Positions 6,858 through 13,125 of a stretch of DNA of 31,572 nucleotides are shown here, in pieces (the first letter of the stretch is position 1; the number at the start of each line of letters is the position of its first letter). The notes below the pieces were generated by a model. It was not told the DNA's origin. It saw only the letters and a program-made list of their open reading frames with translations, and did not search any database. The DNA comes from an uncultured Clostridia bacterium (GTDB taxonomy: Bacteria; Bacillota; Clostridia; Oscillospirales; Ruminococcaceae): positions 1-31,572 of the forward strand of contig CANRHA010000001.1 in assembly GCA_947630315.1 (NCBI GenBank), written 5' to 3'. Both the position numbers and the translations under genes were made by a program.

Positions 6858-8108
6858 ATGGCGATAATATTTAACAGGTTTAAGAATGCTATAAGTGCAT
6901 TTATGGGCAGAGATCCAACAACGGTGCCTTACTATGAATACGGATCGGGTTCTGCATATAGGCCGGCACCTAGACTTTCGACGAATACACTTCGTTCAAT
7001 TGTTACCTCTGTCTATAACCAGATAGCTGTAGACGCAGCTGCTATAGACATAAAGCACGTTAGACTTGAAGAAGAAAAATACAAGGAAACCATATATGAC
7101 TCGCTAAACAGAGTTCTATCAAAAGAAGCCAACATCGACCAAACAGGAAGGAAGCTCATACAGTATGCTGTACTGTCTATGCTCGACGAGGGTGTTGTAG
7201 CATTGATACCGACATTAGCCGATGTATCTGATATTTTCAATGAGCATCCAAATAAAATTTATGAGGTCAGAGTTGCAAAAATAGTAGAATGGTTTCCTAG
7301 ACATATACGTGTTGAAGTTTATAATGACTTAACTGGACAGCCAGTTCAATTGGTTTATAAGAAAGAAATTTGTCCAATTATTGAAAATCCATTTTATAAC
7401 ATTATGAACGAACCTAACTCAACAGCAAAAAGATTGATGAAGGTTCTGGGACAATTGGATAAAACAAACGAGTCTAACAGTGCTGGAAAACTGGATTTAA
7501 TTATTCAATTACCGTACACAATTAAGTCCGAAGCGCGGCGTAAACAAGCAGAAATGCGTCGTACGGAAATAGAAAAGCAACTTACGGGGTCTCAGTATGG
7601 TATCGCATATACAGATGCCACTGAGCATATAGTTCAGCTTAATAGAAGTCTAGAGAACAACCTCTGGGAACAAGCAGAGAAGTTAAAAGACGATCTATTC
7701 AACCAATTAGGTTTCTCACAGTCTATCTTCGACGGAACAGCCGACGAAAAGACTATGCTGAACTACTATAATAGAACTATAGAGCCTATCCTCACAACGA
7801 TAACCGAGGAGATTGAGCGTAAATGGCTCACAACAACAGCAACGTCACAAGGCCAGGCTATTAAGTTCTTTAGAGATCCGTTTAAGTTAGTTCCTGTAGC
7901 TCAAATAGCTGAGATAGCAGATAAGTTTACAAGGAACGAGATAATGACGTCTAACGAAATGAGATCTGTGATGGGATTAAGACCCGCCAACGATCCCAAG
8001 GCAGACGAATTACGCAATAGTAATTTAAATCATCCAGATGAGAAGTTAGAGTTACAGCAACAAAATTCAAAATCAACAAATAATTTAGAAAAGGAGGAGA
8101 CCGAATAA
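6858..8108 (+). CDS. Portal protein
   Basis: 416 aa between terL and protease/capsid; SIVTSVYNQIAVDAAAIDIKHVRL, GKLDLIIQLPY, DKFTRNEIMTSNEMRSVMG. Confidence 0.9.
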   Translation: MAIIFNRFKNAISAFMGRDPTTVPYYEYGSGSAYRPAPRLSTNTLRSIVTSVYNQIAVDAAAIDIKHVRLEEEKYKETIYDSLNRVLSKEANIDQTGRKLIQYAVLSMLDEGVVALIPTLADVSDIFNEHPNKIYEVRVAKIVEWFPRHIRVEVYNDLTGQPVQLVYKKEICPIIENPFYNIMNEPNSTAKRLMKVLGQLDKTNESNSAGKLDLIIQLPYTIKSEARRKQAEMRRTEIEKQLTGSQYGIAYTDATEHIVQLNRSLENNLWEQAEKLKDDLFNQLGFSQSIFDGTADEKTMLNYYNRTIEPILTTITEEIERKWLTTTATSQGQAIKFFRDPFKLVPVAQIAEIADKFTRNEIMTSNEMRSVMGLRPANDPKADELRNSNLNHPDEKLELQQQNSKSTNNLEKEETE

Positions 8109-9919
8109 TGGAATGGGATTTTTGTGGTTATGCTACTAAGAATGACCTTCGATGCGATGATGGTAGAATAATTCGTAAAGATGCCTTTAAACCACAGGAT
8201 GGAACGAAAGTCCCGCTATGCTGGAATCATCAGCATAATAGTCCGCAAGATGTGCTCGGACACGCAGTTCTTGAAAATCGCGATGACGGTGTATACGCTT
8301 ATTGCAAGTTTAATAATACGCCCAGCGGTCAGGATGCAAAAGAGCAGGTTAAGAATGGCGATATAGAGTCACTTAGCATCTGGGCTAATAACTTAGTTCA
8401 TAAGGGACGAGACGTTGTTCACGGTGTTATACGTGAGGTTAGCTTGGTTTTTGCCGGAGCGAATCCAGGGGCATTTATAGAATCTGTAATGGCTCACTCA
8501 GAGCCTATGGATGAAGGCGATGACGAAGGGATATTCTACGCTGGTGAAGGTATAGAGCTCTACCACGCAGCGGAGGAAACCAAAAGCGAAAATAGCAAGA
8601 AGGAGGAATCAGACGTGGCAGACAAAAATGATAGCGGTGAAAAGACCGTTCAGGAAGTAATGGATACCCTGAACGAGGATCAGAAAACAGCAGTTGCAAT
8701 TGTCATAGCGCAGGCAGTAGCGGACGCAACGGACGGAGATGAAGATGAGGAGGGAGAAGAAATGACGCACAGTGCTTTTGAAAAAGGCGCACAGATGAGT
8801 TATGATAACTCATACGCAGCAGCGAAAGAAGCTTTTGCGGATTTGCTTGACACAGCAAAGAAAAATAAGGTTAGTTCATTAAGGGAGCTTGTTCATTCGG
8901 CTTTCGAAGAGGAAGAAGAATTGATGCACGCTCTCGATCTTAAGGGAATGGAGCAACCGACTATAAGAACAAATCAGAATTATGGCTTTAGGGATCCTGA
9001 GATGCTCTTCCCTGATTACAAAGCAACAAGTACAACACCCGAGTGGATCTCAAGGGATATGGCTTGGGTTACGAGAGTTCTTGGCGGTGTTAAGCACGTT
9101 CCGTTTACAAGAATTAAGTCACTTTATGCTAACATTACAGAAGATGAGGCGAGGGCTAGGGGATACATTCGCGGCAAACAGAAGAAGGAAGAGTTCTTCA
9201 AAGTTATCAAGAGGACAACAGATCCTCAGACGATTTACAAACTTCAGAAGCTGGATCGTGACGACATAATCGATATTACAGACTTCGACGTTGTAATGTG
9301 GATTAAGGGTGAGATGCGTGTAATGCTTAATGAGGAAATTGCAAGAGCGATTCTTCTTGGTGACGGCAGGACAGACGAGGACGAGAGTAAGATCAAAGAA
9401 GATCATATCAGGCCTGTAGTAAAGGACGTTCCTTTATTCAATGTTATAGTTCCTGTTACAGTTGCGGCAGACGCAGATGCTATGGATATTTCCAAGGCGT
9501 TCATCCGCGCGGTTATTAAGTCACGTAAGGACTACAAGGGCTCAGGCAATCCCACACTTTGGACAAACGATGACGTTCTTAGTGACGCGCTTCTTCTTGA
9601 GGATGCTATTGATCATCGTCTCTACAAGACAGAAGCAGAGTTGGCAACAGCATTAAGAGTTAAGGATATCGTTACTGTTGAACCTATGGAGGGTTATCAG
9701 ATCGAGGACGATAAGAAAACTAAGAGAGATCTTCTTGGCGTTGTATGGAATCCTGTTGACTATACAGTTGGTACAAACAAGGGCGGTCAGATAACGACAT
9801 TCGATGACTTCGATATCGACTTCAACCAGTATAAGTATTTGATTGAGACGAGGATGTCAGGTGCTCTAACTAAGCCGTTCTCAGCAATGACATATTACCT
9901 GGTGAAATCGGGGGAATAA
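8108..9919 (+). CDS. Prohead protease-scaffold-major capsid protein fusion (HK97-like)
   Basis: N-terminal HK97-type protease (VPLCWNHQH, SLSIWA, IREVSLVFAGANPGA), acidic scaffold-like middle, capsid domain (LNEEIARAILLGDG, FDDFDIDFNQYKYLIETRMSGAL). Confidence 0.9.
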   Translation: MEWDFCGYATKNDLRCDDGRIIRKDAFKPQDGTKVPLCWNHQHNSPQDVLGHAVLENRDDGVYAYCKFNNTPSGQDAKEQVKNGDIESLSIWANNLVHKGRDVVHGVIREVSLVFAGANPGAFIESVMAHSEPMDEGDDEGIFYAGEGIELYHAAEETKSENSKKEESDVADKNDSGEKTVQEVMDTLNEDQKTAVAIVIAQAVADATDGDEDEEGEEMTHSAFEKGAQMSYDNSYAAAKEAFADLLDTAKKNKVSSLRELVHSAFEEEEELMHALDLKGMEQPTIRTNQNYGFRDPEMLFPDYKATSTTPEWISRDMAWVTRVLGGVKHVPFTRIKSLYANITEDEARARGYIRGKQKKEEFFKVIKRTTDPQTIYKLQKLDRDDIIDITDFDVVMWIKGEMRVMLNEEIARAILLGDGRTDEDESKIKEDHIRPVVKDVPLFNVIVPVTVAADADAMDISKAFIRAVIKSRKDYKGSGNPTLWTNDDVLSDALLLEDAIDHRLYKTEAELATALRVKDIVTVEPMEGYQIEDDKKTKRDLLGVVWNPVDYTVGTNKGGQITTFDDFDIDFNQYKYLIETRMSGALTKPFSAMTYYLVKSGE

Positions 9920-9972
9920 GGCCCCTGGCTATATCGCCTAAAGTAGCTGGGGGAAGTAGTACTTTCTTAGGC
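9910..9972 (+). promoter_or_regulatory. Predicted -1 programmed ribosomal frameshift signal: G GGG GAA plus H-type pseudoknot
   Basis: Heptamer 9910-9916 directly before the TAA; stem 9922-9931/9944-9953 (10 bp, two G-U); loop 9936-9941 GCCTAA complementary to 9967-9972 TTAGGC. Confidence 0.75.
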
Positions 9973-10305
9973 AAATCAGTATCAGAGTTACAGGATGATG
10001 TTAAGATAAAAGACAAGAAGGTGACCGGTACTCTTAATTACGTTGAGAACTTCGACAAGTTTGATAAGGGCGCAGAAGGCAACTTCTTAGCTCTTACATT
10101 TGACGTTGCGGACGACGAAACACTTACATTTACATCCGCGACAGACGGTGTACCTGTTGAGATTACAGATGACTACTTAATCTATAAGGTTCCTTCAGGG
10201 AAACCGGAGATGAAGTTCAAACTTGAAAGAGAAGGACAGTCTACTGAATTAACTCTTAACATATCTGAACTCGTGCTTACACCAAAAAGTGGGATAAAAG
10301 GCTGA
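9913..10305 (+). CDS. Frameshift-accessed C-terminal extension of the capsid protein (~130 aa, Ig-like); the track annotates only 10021-10305
   Basis: Frame open from 9874; no good SD before GTG 10021; similar to the major tail protein C-terminus (TFLGKSVSELQDDVKI/VTGTLNYVENF/GNFLAL vs TFLKKAASDLQENIKI/VTGTLKKVDNF/GHYLAI). Confidence 0.75.
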   Translation, partial: GIRPLAISPKVAGGSSTFLGKSVSELQDDVKIKDKKVTGTLNYVENFDKFDKGAEGNFLALTFDVADDETLTFTSATDGVPVEITDDYLIYKVPSGKPEMKFKLEREGQSTELTLNISELVLTPKSGIKG

Positions 10306-10339
10306 TACTTACAAAATTCATAATGGGGAGGTGATTTTG

Positions 10340-10675
10340 ATGAAGTTTGCTGGTAAGGTTGGTTTTTGGATTGATGACGTTGAAAATGCTCCTAGTGTCT
10401 ACGAGCCAAAGATTATTGAAAAGCCCTATGTAGGCGATGTAACCCGTAACTATAGACGCAATCAGCAGGACAGCGGACAACAAAACAAGAATCTAACACT
10501 TAACAACCAAATTGATATTTTGGCTGACGCATATCTTCAACAAAATTACCAAACCGTTAGATACATTGTTTGGAACGGTGTTAAATGGGAAGTCACATCA
10601 GTCGAGGTCAACTATCCTAAAATAAGATTAGAAATCGGAGGTGCATACAGTGGAATCACAGCCGACGAAGAGTGA
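10340..10675 (+). CDS. Head closure / head-tail stopper protein
   Basis: GGGGAGG SD, ATG 10340; MKFAGKVGF...LNNQIDILADAY...RYIVWNGVKWEVTSVEVNYPKIRLEIGGAY; position after capsid. Confidence 0.7.
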   Translation: MKFAGKVGFWIDDVENAPSVYEPKIIEKPYVGDVTRNYRRNQQDSGQQNKNLTLNNQIDILADAYLQQNYQTVRYIVWNGVKWEVTSVEVNYPKIRLEIGGAYSGITADEE

Positions 10676-10994
10676 ACGACTTCTATTAGATGAAGTTCTT
10701 CGTGATATTTTGGGAGAGCACAGAGACAACTGCTACTTCTCACCACCTGACAAAATGAAGTTGAAGTACCCTTGCATTGTTTACAGATTGTCTAGCATAA
10801 ATTCAATAAATGCTGACAATATTAAGTACAAAACATTAGAGGGATACGACGTAACTGTTATGGACCATAACCCAGATAGTGAGCTTTACAAAAAAGTCTT
10901 CAATTTGCCTTATTCGGCATTTAACAGAAACTTTACAAGTGGCGGTTTAAATAACTGGGTTTTTAAAGTTTATTATGGCAGAAAACAAGATTAA
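10650..10994 (+). CDS. Tail terminator / tail completion protein
   Basis: GGAGG at 10637-10641, GTG 10650; YFSPPDKMKLKYPCIVY motif; directly before the major tail gene. Confidence 0.7.
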   Translation: MESQPTKSERLLLDEVLRDILGEHRDNCYFSPPDKMKLKYPCIVYRLSSINSINADNIKYKTLEGYDVTVMDHNPDSELYKKVFNLPYSAFNRNFTSGGLNNWVFKVYYGRKQD

Positions 10995-11009
10995 AAGGAG
11001 GAAACAATT

Positions 11010-12092
11010 ATGGCTAGATTAGAGTGGGATAAAATTGGCGAGCACTTTATGGAGCTCGGTACTGACCACGGCGTTCTTTATGTTCAAGACCCTGACAAAG
11101 ACCCTATAAAGGACGATATGAAATACCATTACGGCAAAGGCGTTGTATGGAACGGCTTAACCTCAGTTACACTTTCACCTGAGGGAGCTGAACCGTCAGA
11201 CATCTATGCCGACAATATTAAGTATGCAACGATTCGTTCAGCTGAGACGTTTGGCGCTACGATTGAGGCATACACATTCCCTGACGAATTCTATGAGTGC
11301 GATGGATCAGTAGTTGTAGCAAAAGGTATCGTACTTCACGGTCAGAAGAGAAATCAGTTTGGCTTCTCTTACCGTTCGAGAGTTATAAACGACACAAATC
11401 CTGATTCAGATGATACATATAAGCTTCATCTGATTTACGGTGCAACAGCATCACCGTCAGAGCAGACAACGGAAACTATTAATGACTCTCCCGATCCTGG
11501 TACATTTAGCTGGGAGATAGCTACAACACCTATAGCAGTAAAGGGATTCAAGCCTGTAGCTCATATCGAGATTCTTTCAAGGAACTATCCTGCCGCTGTT
11601 ATGCAGAAGATTGAAGACATTCTTTATGGTTCTGAGACAACAGATCCCAGAATGCCTCTTCCCGACGAGCTTATTGAGATCCTTAGCTTACCAGAAGGCA
11701 TACTGGCTACACAGATAAGTGCTCCTAAGCCAACAGAGACATTCTTAAAAAAGGCTGCTTCTGATCTTCAGGAAAACATCAAAATCAACGAGAAAAGTTT
11801 GACAGATGTTGCAGTAACAGGCACTCTTAAGAAAGTAGATAACTTTACAGAGTTTGGCGATGTTGATAATGGATCTGGACACTACCTTGCAATAAATGTG
11901 GACGTTCCAGAAGGCGCAGAAGCTGATTTAATTGGTGTTAAATATACCGAGCCCAAGAAGATTACTGACGGCTACGTATTGTTTAAAGTTACAGACAAGA
12001 GCAAGCCGTTTACAATTCGCGTAACAGATGACGAGACGGTTATTGACAAGGTTTATGACTTAACTGGTCTTGAGCTGAAAGACGGAGACTGA
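11010..12092 (+). CDS. Major tail (tube) protein with in-frame C-terminal Ig-like domain (~11706-12089)
   Basis: GTDHGVLY, GVVWNGLTSVTLSPEGAE, YADNIKY, IEAYTFPDEF, ETINDSP motifs of siphovirus tube proteins; SD AAGGAGG. Confidence 0.9.
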   Translation: MARLEWDKIGEHFMELGTDHGVLYVQDPDKDPIKDDMKYHYGKGVVWNGLTSVTLSPEGAEPSDIYADNIKYATIRSAETFGATIEAYTFPDEFYECDGSVVVAKGIVLHGQKRNQFGFSYRSRVINDTNPDSDDTYKLHLIYGATASPSEQTTETINDSPDPGTFSWEIATTPIAVKGFKPVAHIEILSRNYPAAVMQKIEDILYGSETTDPRMPLPDELIEILSLPEGILATQISAPKPTETFLKKAASDLQENIKINEKSLTDVAVTGTLKKVDNFTEFGDVDNGSGHYLAINVDVPEGAEADLIGVKYTEPKKITDGYVLFKVTDKSKPFTIRVTDDETVIDKVYDLTGLELKDGD

Positions 12093-12125: not shown

Positions 12126-12608
12126 ATGATTAAGCAAATAGTAGAATACAAAGATTACAATGGGGAACAGAGGAAGGAAGAATTATATTTTGACCTTTCA
12201 GAAGCCGAAGTTGTAGAAATGCAGTTCTCTGAAAAAGGGGGTATTGTTTCTTATCTTAGAAAGATTCTTATCGAAAAAGATGAAGGAAACATACTTAAAT
12301 ATTTTAAAGATCTCATCGTTACGGCTTATGGCGAGAAGACTCCGGATGGAAAATATTTCGTAAAAGACGAAGAGACGAAAAAGCATCTCATTTATTCTCC
12401 GGCGTATTCTCAGTTATTTATGAAATTCGCCAGAGATCCAAAAGCAGGATTCGAATTCATCAAAGGTGTCATTCCTGAGCAGTACAGAGCTCAACTTAAC
12501 AATGACGCCATAGATGACAACAAAGTGTTTGATCCGATATCTATGGAATACATAGATAAGAGCTCTGGGGATGGTGCTAATGCTAAGATTGAAGATACCA
12601 AGAAATGA
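12126..12608 (+). CDS. Tail assembly chaperone
   Basis: Position after the tube gene; EYKDYNGEQRKEELYFDL, AYGEKTPDGKYFVK, SPAYSQLFMKF. Confidence 0.75.
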   Translation: MIKQIVEYKDYNGEQRKEELYFDLSEAEVVEMQFSEKGGIVSYLRKILIEKDEGNILKYFKDLIVTAYGEKTPDGKYFVKDEETKKHLIYSPAYSQLFMKFARDPKAGFEFIKGVIPEQYRAQLNNDAIDDNKVFDPISMEYIDKSSGDGANAKIEDTKK

Positions 12609-13125
12609 GTTTTGGGATCCAGAGACTAGGCAATTTATTTACACTCCAGAAACGGAGCTTATACTTGAACACTCGCTGGTTTCATTGACGAAATGGGAAC
12701 AAAAATACCACAAACCGTTCTTGACCAGCGAGAAATCTATTGATGAGACTCTGGACTACATAAGGTGTATGATGCTTAACGAAGACGAAAATTTCGATTC
12801 AAATGCATTGAAAAACCTTACTCCAGAGGACATTAATAAGATACACGATTATATGAACGATCCAATGACAGCAACCACGATAAAAGAGAAAAAGAAAGGC
12901 AGAATAGATAGGACTATAGTTACTTCGGAGATTATCTACTATTGGATGACAGCTCTTCAAATACCACTTGACTTTGAAAATCGTCATCTTAATACCCTAC
13001 TAACTCTTATTCGTGTATGTAGTATAAAGAACTCGCCACCAGAAAAGATGAGTAAAAAAGATATTTATGAGCGAAATCGTGCTGTTAACGAAGCTCGTAA
13101 AGCCAAAATGCACACAAAGGGGTGA
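12580..13125 (+). CDS. Second tail assembly chaperone-like protein
   Basis: LILEHSLVSLTKWEQKYHKPFL, TSEIIYYWMTALQIP, HLNTLLTLIRVC; start at 12571 or 12580. Confidence 0.65.
   Translation: MLRLKIPRNEFWDPETRQFIYTPETELILEHSLVSLTKWEQKYHKPFLTSEKSIDETLDYIRCMMLNEDENFDSNALKNLTPEDINKIHDYMNDPMTATTIKEKKKGRIDRTIVTSEIIYYWMTALQIPLDFENRHLNTLLTLIRVCSIKNSPPEKMSKKDIYERNRAVNEARKAKMHTKG

Follow-up and report, generated by a model that had tools for sequence, protein, structure and literature searches.

C-terminal extension of capsid proteins by ribosomal frameshifting is already established for phages T3/T7, A2, A118/A500, and PSA. In T3/T7, a −1 shift near the end of gene 10 (10A/10B) gives rise to a minor capsid species, with an immunoglobulin-like (Ig-like) extension in T3 (PMC5009743). 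According to the same review, Lactobacillus phage A2 (gp5A/gp5B) and the Listeria phages A118/A500 (Cps) undergo a −1 shift at the 3' end of the capsid gene that adds an Ig-like extension (Atkins et al. 2016, PMC5009743, citing Garcia 2004, Dorscht 2009); a tail protein is extended as well, in A2 by a second −1 event and in A118/A500 by a +1 event within the gene of the major tail protein. The review also assigns +1 frameshifts at CCC_UGA or ACA_CCC to cps of Listeria phage PSA and to tsh of PSA/A118/A500, and it summarizes Fraser, Yu, Maxwell and Davidson 2006 to the effect that Ig-like domains are promiscuous on head and tail proteins, which they join in frame or by +1/−1 shifts (PMC5009743). 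Here, we describe a candidate for a further such junction, located at the 3' end of the capsid gene in the 31,572-nt contig CANRHA010000001.1 from an uncultured Clostridia bacterium (referred to as the window, i.e., the whole stretch of DNA analyzed).

The sequence of the window makes it highly probable that a programmed −1 ribosomal frameshift at G_GGG_GAA appends a domain of ~130 amino acids (aa) to a fraction of the capsid subunits. An earlier reading of the DNA letters alone (the original prediction) had proposed such a capsid-stop frameshift and an extension missed by gene callers, and had noted that frameshifted capsid extensions with Ig-like domains occur in other phages. The latter holds for A2, A118/A500, and T3 (PMC5009743); the former gains support from in-frame fusions, recurrent slippery junctions, purifying selection, and the agreement of four assemblies.

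As in A2 and A118/A500, the predicted −1 shift lies in the last capsid codons and would yield a C-terminally extended second species. Unlike in these phages, the slippery site of the window is G_GGG_GAA, protease and capsid are fused, no similarity of the domain to annotated phage records was detectable, and the copy of the domain on the tail protein is fused in frame instead of being frameshifted. T3/T7 are podoviruses, and they differ from the window in the context of the capsid gene, which is unrelated, in their slippery sequences, and in the family of the domain. The window also differs from the +1 sites of PSA and tsh in using −1 itself, whereas in loci L093, L094, L131, and L153 access to its domain family is by a +1 shift at CCC_TAG, 5' of a hairpin, which parallels the CCC_UGA of Listeria tsh. 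Like the Ig-like domains surveyed in 2006, the module of the window occurs on head and tail proteins and on decoration proteins, either in frame or behind +1/−1 shifts; unlike them, it falls outside the Pfam Ig families of that survey (I-set, Big_2, FN3), and its match to the Ig fold is weak. Three features appear to be new: the domain family itself, an L5-type heptamer against a capsid stop, and a stimulatory hairpin that lies within the coding sequence of the domain's linker and shows covariation in many phages. To our knowledge, a linker-encoded hairpin that travels with the domain is not described in Fraser 2006.

The slippery heptamer and the open −1 frame

The capsid open reading frame (ORF, 8108-9919) ends TCG GGG GAA TAA, with GGGGGAA at 9910-9916 and TAA at 9917-9919, and the −1 frame is open from 9874 to 10305 (TGA at 10303-10305), both as originally described. 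The first ATG, GTG, or TTG in this frame is GTG 10021; in the window and in three close relatives, the open −1 frame extends over 147 nt without any of these codons. The original prediction had named GGGGGAA as the −1 site of the mycobacteriophage L5 tail chaperone, in agreement with the L5 gene 24/25 record and with the literature: L5 gene 24 contains CTG GGG GAA, gene 25 is annotated as a joined coding sequence, and GGGGGAA is found across ~1000 annotated actinobacteriophage chaperone frameshifts (PMC10885494). The window heptamer is identical to that of L5 gp24/gp25 and has the identical phase. It differs in lying in a capsid gene and not in a chaperone gene, and directly against the stop, whereas the L5 heptamer is placed 18 nt 5' of it. 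On a −1 slip, GGG would re-pair perfectly on GGG, and GAA to GGA requires a central G-U pair, by which tRNA-Glu is able to re-pair on GGA (PMC10885494).

Reading TCG GGG and then GGA ATA AGG gives the junction peptide ...VKSGGIRPLAISPK. This corresponds to the product predicted for P-site-only slippage (...SGG|IRPL, ...YYLVKSGGIRPLAISPK); the original prediction gave this form only, but tandem slippage to ...SGE|IRPL (...YYLVKSGEIRPLAISPK) is equally possible. The candidate junction peptides are ...VKSGEIRPLAISPK or ...VKSGGIRPLAISPK. The junction combines the elements by which programmed −1 signals are recognized: a phased heptamer, a stable structure 5-9 nt downstream, and a long, start-less, conserved overlapping −1 ORF.

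Conservation of the heptamer in related phages had been named as a check of the frameshift. In the independently assembled window, L087, L092, and L096 (dS, the synonymous divergence, 0.2-0.3), the heptamer, the stop, and the open −1 frame are all kept, and the heptamer with an adjacent stop is also present in the more distant L100. In L100, the capsid C-terminus is 57% identical to that of the window, the extension is divergent, and the junction reads CAG GGG GAA TGA. The −1 frame opens just two codons upstream there, so any shift in L100 must occur on the heptamer. These data bear on the reading that the two frames are separated by an error in the assembled G5 run, or by a recent deletion that inactivated the gene, and that the true or ancestral gene is in frame with G6. 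One added G would indeed join the two frames, and in-frame fusions occur in other phages. We nevertheless give this reading hardly any credence: the identical GGGGGAATAA is present in all four assemblies, which derive from different samples and projects, L100 has the same G run with different flanks, the extension is under purifying selection, and dozens of other lineages show a frame break behind different slippery motifs.

In-frame fusions and recurrent junctions in related phages

The recoding site lies in the last codons of a major capsid gene, and the same domain is fused in frame to structural proteins elsewhere. In P0079 (764 aa), Pfam Peptidase_S78 and Phage_capsid are followed by the domain at residues 651-763 in one ORF; P0113 (685 aa) matches Peptidase_S78 only and carries the domain at residues 569-683, again in one ORF; and P0144 (526 aa), which matches Phage_capsid and represents a second capsid type, has the in-frame domain at residues 409-524. 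The tail tube protein of the window is a fourth case. A conceptual trans-frame product, composed of the capsid through GGG 9913 and then the −1 frame, aligned with P0079 and P0113 in a single high-scoring segment pair that runs across the junction (residues 4-724 of 732, 40% identity). These relatives thus encode in one frame what the phage of the window would make only by a change of frame.

For the locus survey, alignment A3 was used as seed, a closer set than the diverse A2. Among the 79 IMG/VR loci obtained, 64 have the domain in the −1 frame and 2 in the +1 frame relative to a long upstream ORF whose stop codon marks the junction; in 2 loci it is in frame, and in 11 it is part of a stand-alone two-domain protein. 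A start codon before the conserved motif is lacking in 25 of the 66 out-of-frame loci. The upstream ORFs of ten sampled loci were assigned by PHROG to major head (5, phrog_544 and phrog_10), protease-capsid fusion (2, phrog_3270), major tail (2, phrog_2645), and head-decoration proteins (1, phrog_49); one of the ten sampled ORFs has no PHROG match.

A recognizable slippery motif is found at the stop, or one codon before it, in 56 of 60 unique junctions. The most frequent are T_TTT_T directly before the stop (19 junctions) and A_AAC_CCN directly before the stop (15), followed by A_AAC_CCT plus one codon and stop (5), GAC_CCY plus one codon and stop (4), T_TTA_AAA plus stop (4), the +1 motif CCC_TAG (4), and A_AAA_AAA plus one codon and stop (1). 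G_GGG_GAA plus stop accounts for 4 junctions, namely the window, L087, L092 (with the near-identical L096), and L100.

The extra base could also arise during transcription, if RNA polymerase slips on the G5 run (transcriptional realignment). The same protein would result, and the T5 runs at other junctions could support polymerase slippage as well. Productive transcriptional slippage, however, needs A/T runs longer than G5, usually of ≥9 (Atkins et al. 2016, PMC5009743). The A_AAC_CCT and T_TTA_AAA motifs at other junctions are ribosomal heptamers rather than homopolymers, and a hairpin 5-8 nt downstream suits ribosomal frameshifting. Realignment of the polymerase is accordingly considered extremely improbable.

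The human faecal phage L004 (MT836057.1), whose capsid is 46% identical, ends its capsid gene with TCC CCA AAA GCG TGA. A canonical C_CCA_AAA is located two codons before the stop and is followed by a different 103-codon −1 ORF (L004:4252-4575), which encodes a different beta-rich domain with a weak, subthreshold match to Pfam S-l_SbsC_C. The arrangement has the appearance of a separate instance of frameshifting at a capsid stop, with another module.

The downstream hairpin and a possible pseudoknot

The original prediction placed a 10-bp stem five nt after GGGGGAA. This stem (9922-9931/9944-9953, with two G-U pairs) was verified, as was the 5-nt spacer, and RNAfold adds U9932-A9943 for a total of −17.3 kcal/mol; the arms are CCCCUGGCUA(U) and (A)UAGCUGGGGG. 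The hairpin ties for the second most stable of ~31,500 36-nt segments of the contig, 0.03% of sampled segments fold as well, and so do 3.3% of the synonymous recodings of the same peptide. Within 9600-10500, no terminator-like or promoter-like sites were found and Rfam gave no match, which agrees with the earlier statement that the hairpin does not look like a terminator. Four substitutions separate the relatives in 9917-9972, all at unpaired positions, and two of them yield an additional pair: G9921A and A9954U give a 12th pair (9921/9954), which is G-U in L092 and A-U in L087/L096.

Across the junctions, the slip site-to-stem spacers are 5-8 nt throughout, and 30 of 60 junctions beat 95% of their synonymous recodings, where ~3 would be expected. 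For 21 junctions with an alignable 'SLSVDADIS' linker, RNAalifold yielded a 9-bp stem just 3' of the stop, and six of the nine pairs have compensatory changes. In this alignment, 88% of cells are paired versus 75% in shuffles, and the covariation score is 0.399 versus 0.178 in shuffles (0 of 500 as high), slid registers reaching ≤0.138. The stem covariation that had been suggested as a further check is present in these 21 related junctions, but the close relatives are too similar for it to be assessed in the window hairpin. The assignment of the hairpin as a stimulator is well supported for the class of junctions and reasonably supported for the instance in the window.

The hairpin loop GCCUAA is an exact complement of UUAGGC (9967-9972), so the pairing potential noted originally for a pseudoknot is real at the level of sequence. 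The loop-downstream duplex has −8.9 kcal/mol, a value equaled by 2.7% of shuffles, and the loop lengths (L1 = 4, L2 = 2, L3 = 13) are geometrically plausible. The complement is unaltered in close relatives, but its 3' arm encodes the conserved L-G of FLGK, and the conservation of this arm is therefore uninformative. At related junctions, 8 of 34 loop-downstream pairings score ≤0.05, and the partner sites are not consistent. Of the proposed pseudoknot stimulator, the hairpin stands, whereas the second stem, with its modest statistics and the lack of a consistent counterpart in relatives, is rather doubtful. Four major head/tail genes ending GAA AAC CCT TAA (L141, L146, L148, and L149) have the loop CCCGAA (CCUGAA in L146), which complements UUCGGG (UUUGGG) in the LFGK codons. 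This partner occupies the same codon position as UUAGGC in the window, which hints that two lineages may share a pseudoknot between the loop and the LGK codons.

Points against frameshifting and the case for reinitiation

Several observations weigh against a hairpin-stimulated frameshift in the window. G_GGG_GAA is not a strict X_XXY_YYZ heptamer, given the central G-U pair needed in the A-site. When a ribosome does not keep the heptamer unpaired, an alternative CGGGGG/CCCCUG hairpin competes with the proposed one, and the close relatives are too alike for real covariation of the window hairpin. In a dinucleotide shuffle of the local 61 nt, which are rich in G/C runs, the hairpin is unremarkable (z −0.38); we judged this to be the wrong null model, as the C- and G-runs are the signal and survive shuffling, and used the contig-wide and synonymous-recoding controls instead. 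The excess of out-of-frame loci among the 79 overstates their share in the family, because the survey was seeded with proteins called as separate ORFs and is biased upward, and in-frame fusions are common among the profile matches. Finally, L100, L099, L114, L129, L146, L162, and L171 have an ATG that overlaps with the stop (TAATG or GAATGA). In these seven lineages, the domain may thus arise as a free protein by reinitiation, and it may also work in trans.

The last point leads to the reading that the extension of the window is itself a free protein, made by termination-reinitiation or by non-AUG initiation beside the capsid stop (ATA 9916-9918, CTG 9925, ATA 9931) and attached to the head as a non-covalent decoration. 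Besides the overlapping ATG codons, it is favored by the ATA of the window, which occupies the exact position of the L100 ATG, and by the 11 loci in which the domain is part of a stand-alone two-domain protein. ATA and CTG are, however, very poor bacterial starts. The start-less 147 nt of the window and its three close relatives, and the 25 out-of-frame loci without any start, stand against this reading as well; it further leaves the slippery motifs and the covarying junction hairpins unexplained, and covalent in-frame fusions exist. We regard reinitiation in the window as very unlikely and retain the −1 frameshift.

The extension domain and the 94-aa ORF

Gene callers report a 94-aa ORF starting at GTG 10021 in all relatives (P0001, P0002), and this recurrence could be taken to indicate a real gene translated from that codon. 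The ORF starts inside the domain, however. The extension shares 38% identity with the C-terminus of the tail tube protein of the same phage (E 8e-13), in an alignment that begins at extension residue 15 (~nt 9955), i.e., 66 nt or 22 residues 5' of the GTG. Homology to all family members also begins at ~9955, and similarity in the linker (LAISPKVAGGSSTFLGK versus LSVDADISASENLLGK) starts ~3 codons past the shift site. The invariant S24, L26, and I32 of the family alignment are all encoded 5' of the GTG, and the same applies to a short helix and the first confident strand of the AlphaFold model (residues 10-20, predicted local distance difference test (pLDDT) ~91). The 108 nt before the GTG are under purifying selection in the −1 frame, the ratio of nonsynonymous to synonymous divergence (dN/dS) among the four assemblies being 0.16-0.2, the same as in the rest of the domain. 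The sequence AAGAAGG directly abuts GTG 10021 with zero spacing, unlike the neighboring gene at 10340 with its spaced Shine-Dalgarno sequence GGGGAGGTGA. Because tail-tube homology, invariant residues, a modeled strand, and purifying selection all lie upstream of the GTG, the 94-aa ORF is best explained as a truncation artifact, and the probability that it is a gene of its own is very small. Both points made originally, the missing Shine-Dalgarno sequence of this ORF and the tail-tube similarity beginning upstream of its annotated start, were confirmed. A split-domain ('tag and catcher') reading was rejected, as the −1 frame is unbroken through the whole domain.

No Pfam family matched the extension or the tail tube domain at E ≤ 0.01, including the Ig-like families Big_2, I-set, and fn3. 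The sole family match was phrog_31690, of unknown function (E 6e-4 with the extension, 1e-6 with the tail tube). Searching the PDB sequences with a profile returned noise and no solved relative, and tblastn against 50,697 phage records gave one match, which is unannotated, and no similarity to an annotated phage record. At the fold level, the best PDB matches in Foldseek are weak and fall on titin/NCAM Ig domains (E ~1e-2, TM 0.40-0.46); VIA gave Z ≤ 4.8 to Ig-type chains, AFDB contains weak BIG2 and cadherin-like rows, and the best BFVD matches are uncharacterized phage proteins (TM 0.8). For the modeled domain, the label 'Ig-like beta sandwich' is reasonable when it does not imply membership of a named Ig family: the predicted Ig-like character persists as a generic beta-sandwich resemblance, but the fold match is weak and no Pfam family applies.

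The domain profile matches 1284 clusters at 50% identity. They include stand-alone calls of ~125-135 aa, C-termini of tail-tube-sized proteins, tandem arrays in giant cadherin/Big-type proteins, and in-frame capsid fusions. Giant proteins of 1800-2700 aa (P0005-P0009) contain the domain in up to 9 tandem copies, and in P0010 (687 aa) and P0078 (886 aa) it lies beside weak cadherin, PKD, Big_13, and SprB-type matches, which suggests an adhesin-like use outside virions. In seven IMG/VR loci (L139, L145, L157, L164-L166, and L174), a stand-alone protein of ~230 aa combines an unknown N-terminal domain of ~100 aa (...VNVEGVEFFVKD...) with the same beta-sandwich domain. Pfam gave no match for this two-domain protein, which may be a true free decoration protein that uses the same module.

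Proposed mechanism and implications

We infer from the anatomy of the junction that the 11-bp hairpin 5 nt downstream would make ribosomes pause over the heptamer, to which the adjacent stop codon perhaps contributes. A share of the ribosomes, depending on the efficiency of slippage, would then move one base back, with tRNA-Gly passing from GGG to GGG and tRNA-Glu from GAA to GGA. Slipped ribosomes would bypass the TAA and read the −1 frame to 10305. In the predicted product, a 16-residue linker joins the C-terminus of a capsid subunit to a beta-sandwich domain of ~115 residues, presumably displayed on the head surface. With the paralogous in-frame copy on the tail tube, head and tail would be decorated with the same kind of module. 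Such a virion would show one uncharacterized module on both parts, and this module may adhere weakly to glycans or cell surfaces.

The linker consensus reads ...SLSVDADISxS..LLGK, with PLAISPKVAGG in the window. The beta-sandwich module may be a mobile 'recoding cassette' whose 5' linker encodes the frameshift-stimulating hairpin, a tentative reading to which we give somewhat less than an even chance. If it is true, a module placed 3' of the stop codon in any head, tail, or decoration gene would need only a slippery run in the last codons of its host gene for substoichiometric display. This would explain why at least five slippery motifs go with the same hairpin position in phrog_3270 capsids, and why out-of-frame attachment is common; a selected, portable signal would then replace the 'chance landing' view of frameshifted Ig-like domains. 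For annotation, the consequence of the frameshift would be that gene callers produce a meaningless 94-aa fragment here, and that ~125-aa 'hypothetical proteins' in hundreds of related contigs probably belong to capsid, tail, or decoration proteins with an extension. Within the family, the combination of slippery site, stop, and hairpin occurs in many natural versions, including G_GGG_GAA outside tail-chaperone genes, which would be useful for studying how an adjacent stop and a hairpin in the coding region set frameshift efficiency.

Genomic setting

The window is a complete 31.6-kb contig from a metagenome-assembled genome (MAG) of 76% completeness, and the phage that it carries is an uncultivated gut phage. 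Its structural module is ordered portal, protease-scaffold-capsid fusion, DUF7253 protein, tail-terminator-like protein, major tail protein, tail assembly chaperone, lysin, and tape measure. The coordinates of the features discussed are given in Table 1. The closest annotated capsids are the 'major capsid and protease fusion' proteins of Gordonia, Arthrobacter, and Rhodococcus phages (46-48% identity). Megablast of 8108-12092 against the phage collection found zero DNA relatives. With the single extension protein as query, no related locus was found in viral contigs or metagenome contigs, and one MAG contig was found among genome contigs.

Table 1. Positions of the capsid-stop junction, the extension, and flanking genes in the window (MFE, minimum free energy; AF2, AlphaFold 2).
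Feature	Position	Strand	Basis
Portal	6858-8108		
Major capsid gene, prohead protease-scaffold-capsid fusion, 603 aa, zero frame of the predicted recoding event	8108..9919	+	Pfam Peptidase_S78 and Phage_capsid; phrog_3270 E 4e-203
Candidate slippery heptamer G_GGG_GAA, phased (TC)G GGG GAA	9910..9916	+	same phased heptamer in L5 gp24/25; recurrent annotated −1 site (PMC10885494)
Predicted −1 frame extension, 130 codons and TGA, linker GIRPLAISPKVAGGSS followed by the domain	9913..10305	+	translation; dN/dS 0.16-0.2 for 9913-10020
Capsid stop TAA, immediately 3' of the heptamer, part of the 5-nt spacer	9917..9919	+	stop at or within one codon of a slippery motif in 56/60 unique junctions
Putative stimulatory hairpin, 10-11 bp stem (9922-9932 with 9943-9953), 10-12 nt loop	9922..9953	+	MFE −17.3 kcal/mol
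Possible second pseudoknot stem, loop GCCUAA (9936-9941) with UUAGGC (9967-9972)	9936..9972	+	exact 6-bp complement
Conserved all-beta domain of an uncharacterized family, weak phrog_31690 match	9955..10302	+	alignments A1, A2; AF2 pLDDT 81, 7 strands
94-aa ORF called by gene callers, probable N-terminally truncated artifact	10021..10305	+	begins at model residue 24
Major tail (tube) protein with in-frame C-terminal paralogous domain (residues ~242-360, nt ~11733-12089)	11010..12092	+	phrog_2645 and phrog_31690; BLASTP E 8e-13

L096 (CANQQE010000013.1) is a 63.6-kb contig of a MAG labeled uncultured Muribaculaceae, and its extension copy, 93% identical to that of the window, lies at the extreme end of the contig. 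The phage has strong Shine-Dalgarno sites, and the lysin genes of relatives match Glyco_hydro_25 and CW_7, which would suit a Gram-positive host; the assignment of L096 to a Muribaculaceae host is therefore doubtful.

Downstream of the major tail gene, the tail assembly chaperone gene (12126-12608, Phage_TAC_17) overlaps an ORF at 12571-13125 (phrog_4338) in the +1 frame. The homologues of this ORF in other phages have a conserved start ML..(V/I)P, and their frame relative to the chaperone varies. A second frameshift of the G/GT type was considered less likely here; because the downstream frame is +1 and the N-termini of the homologues are conserved, an independent start at ATG 12580 is the likelier explanation.

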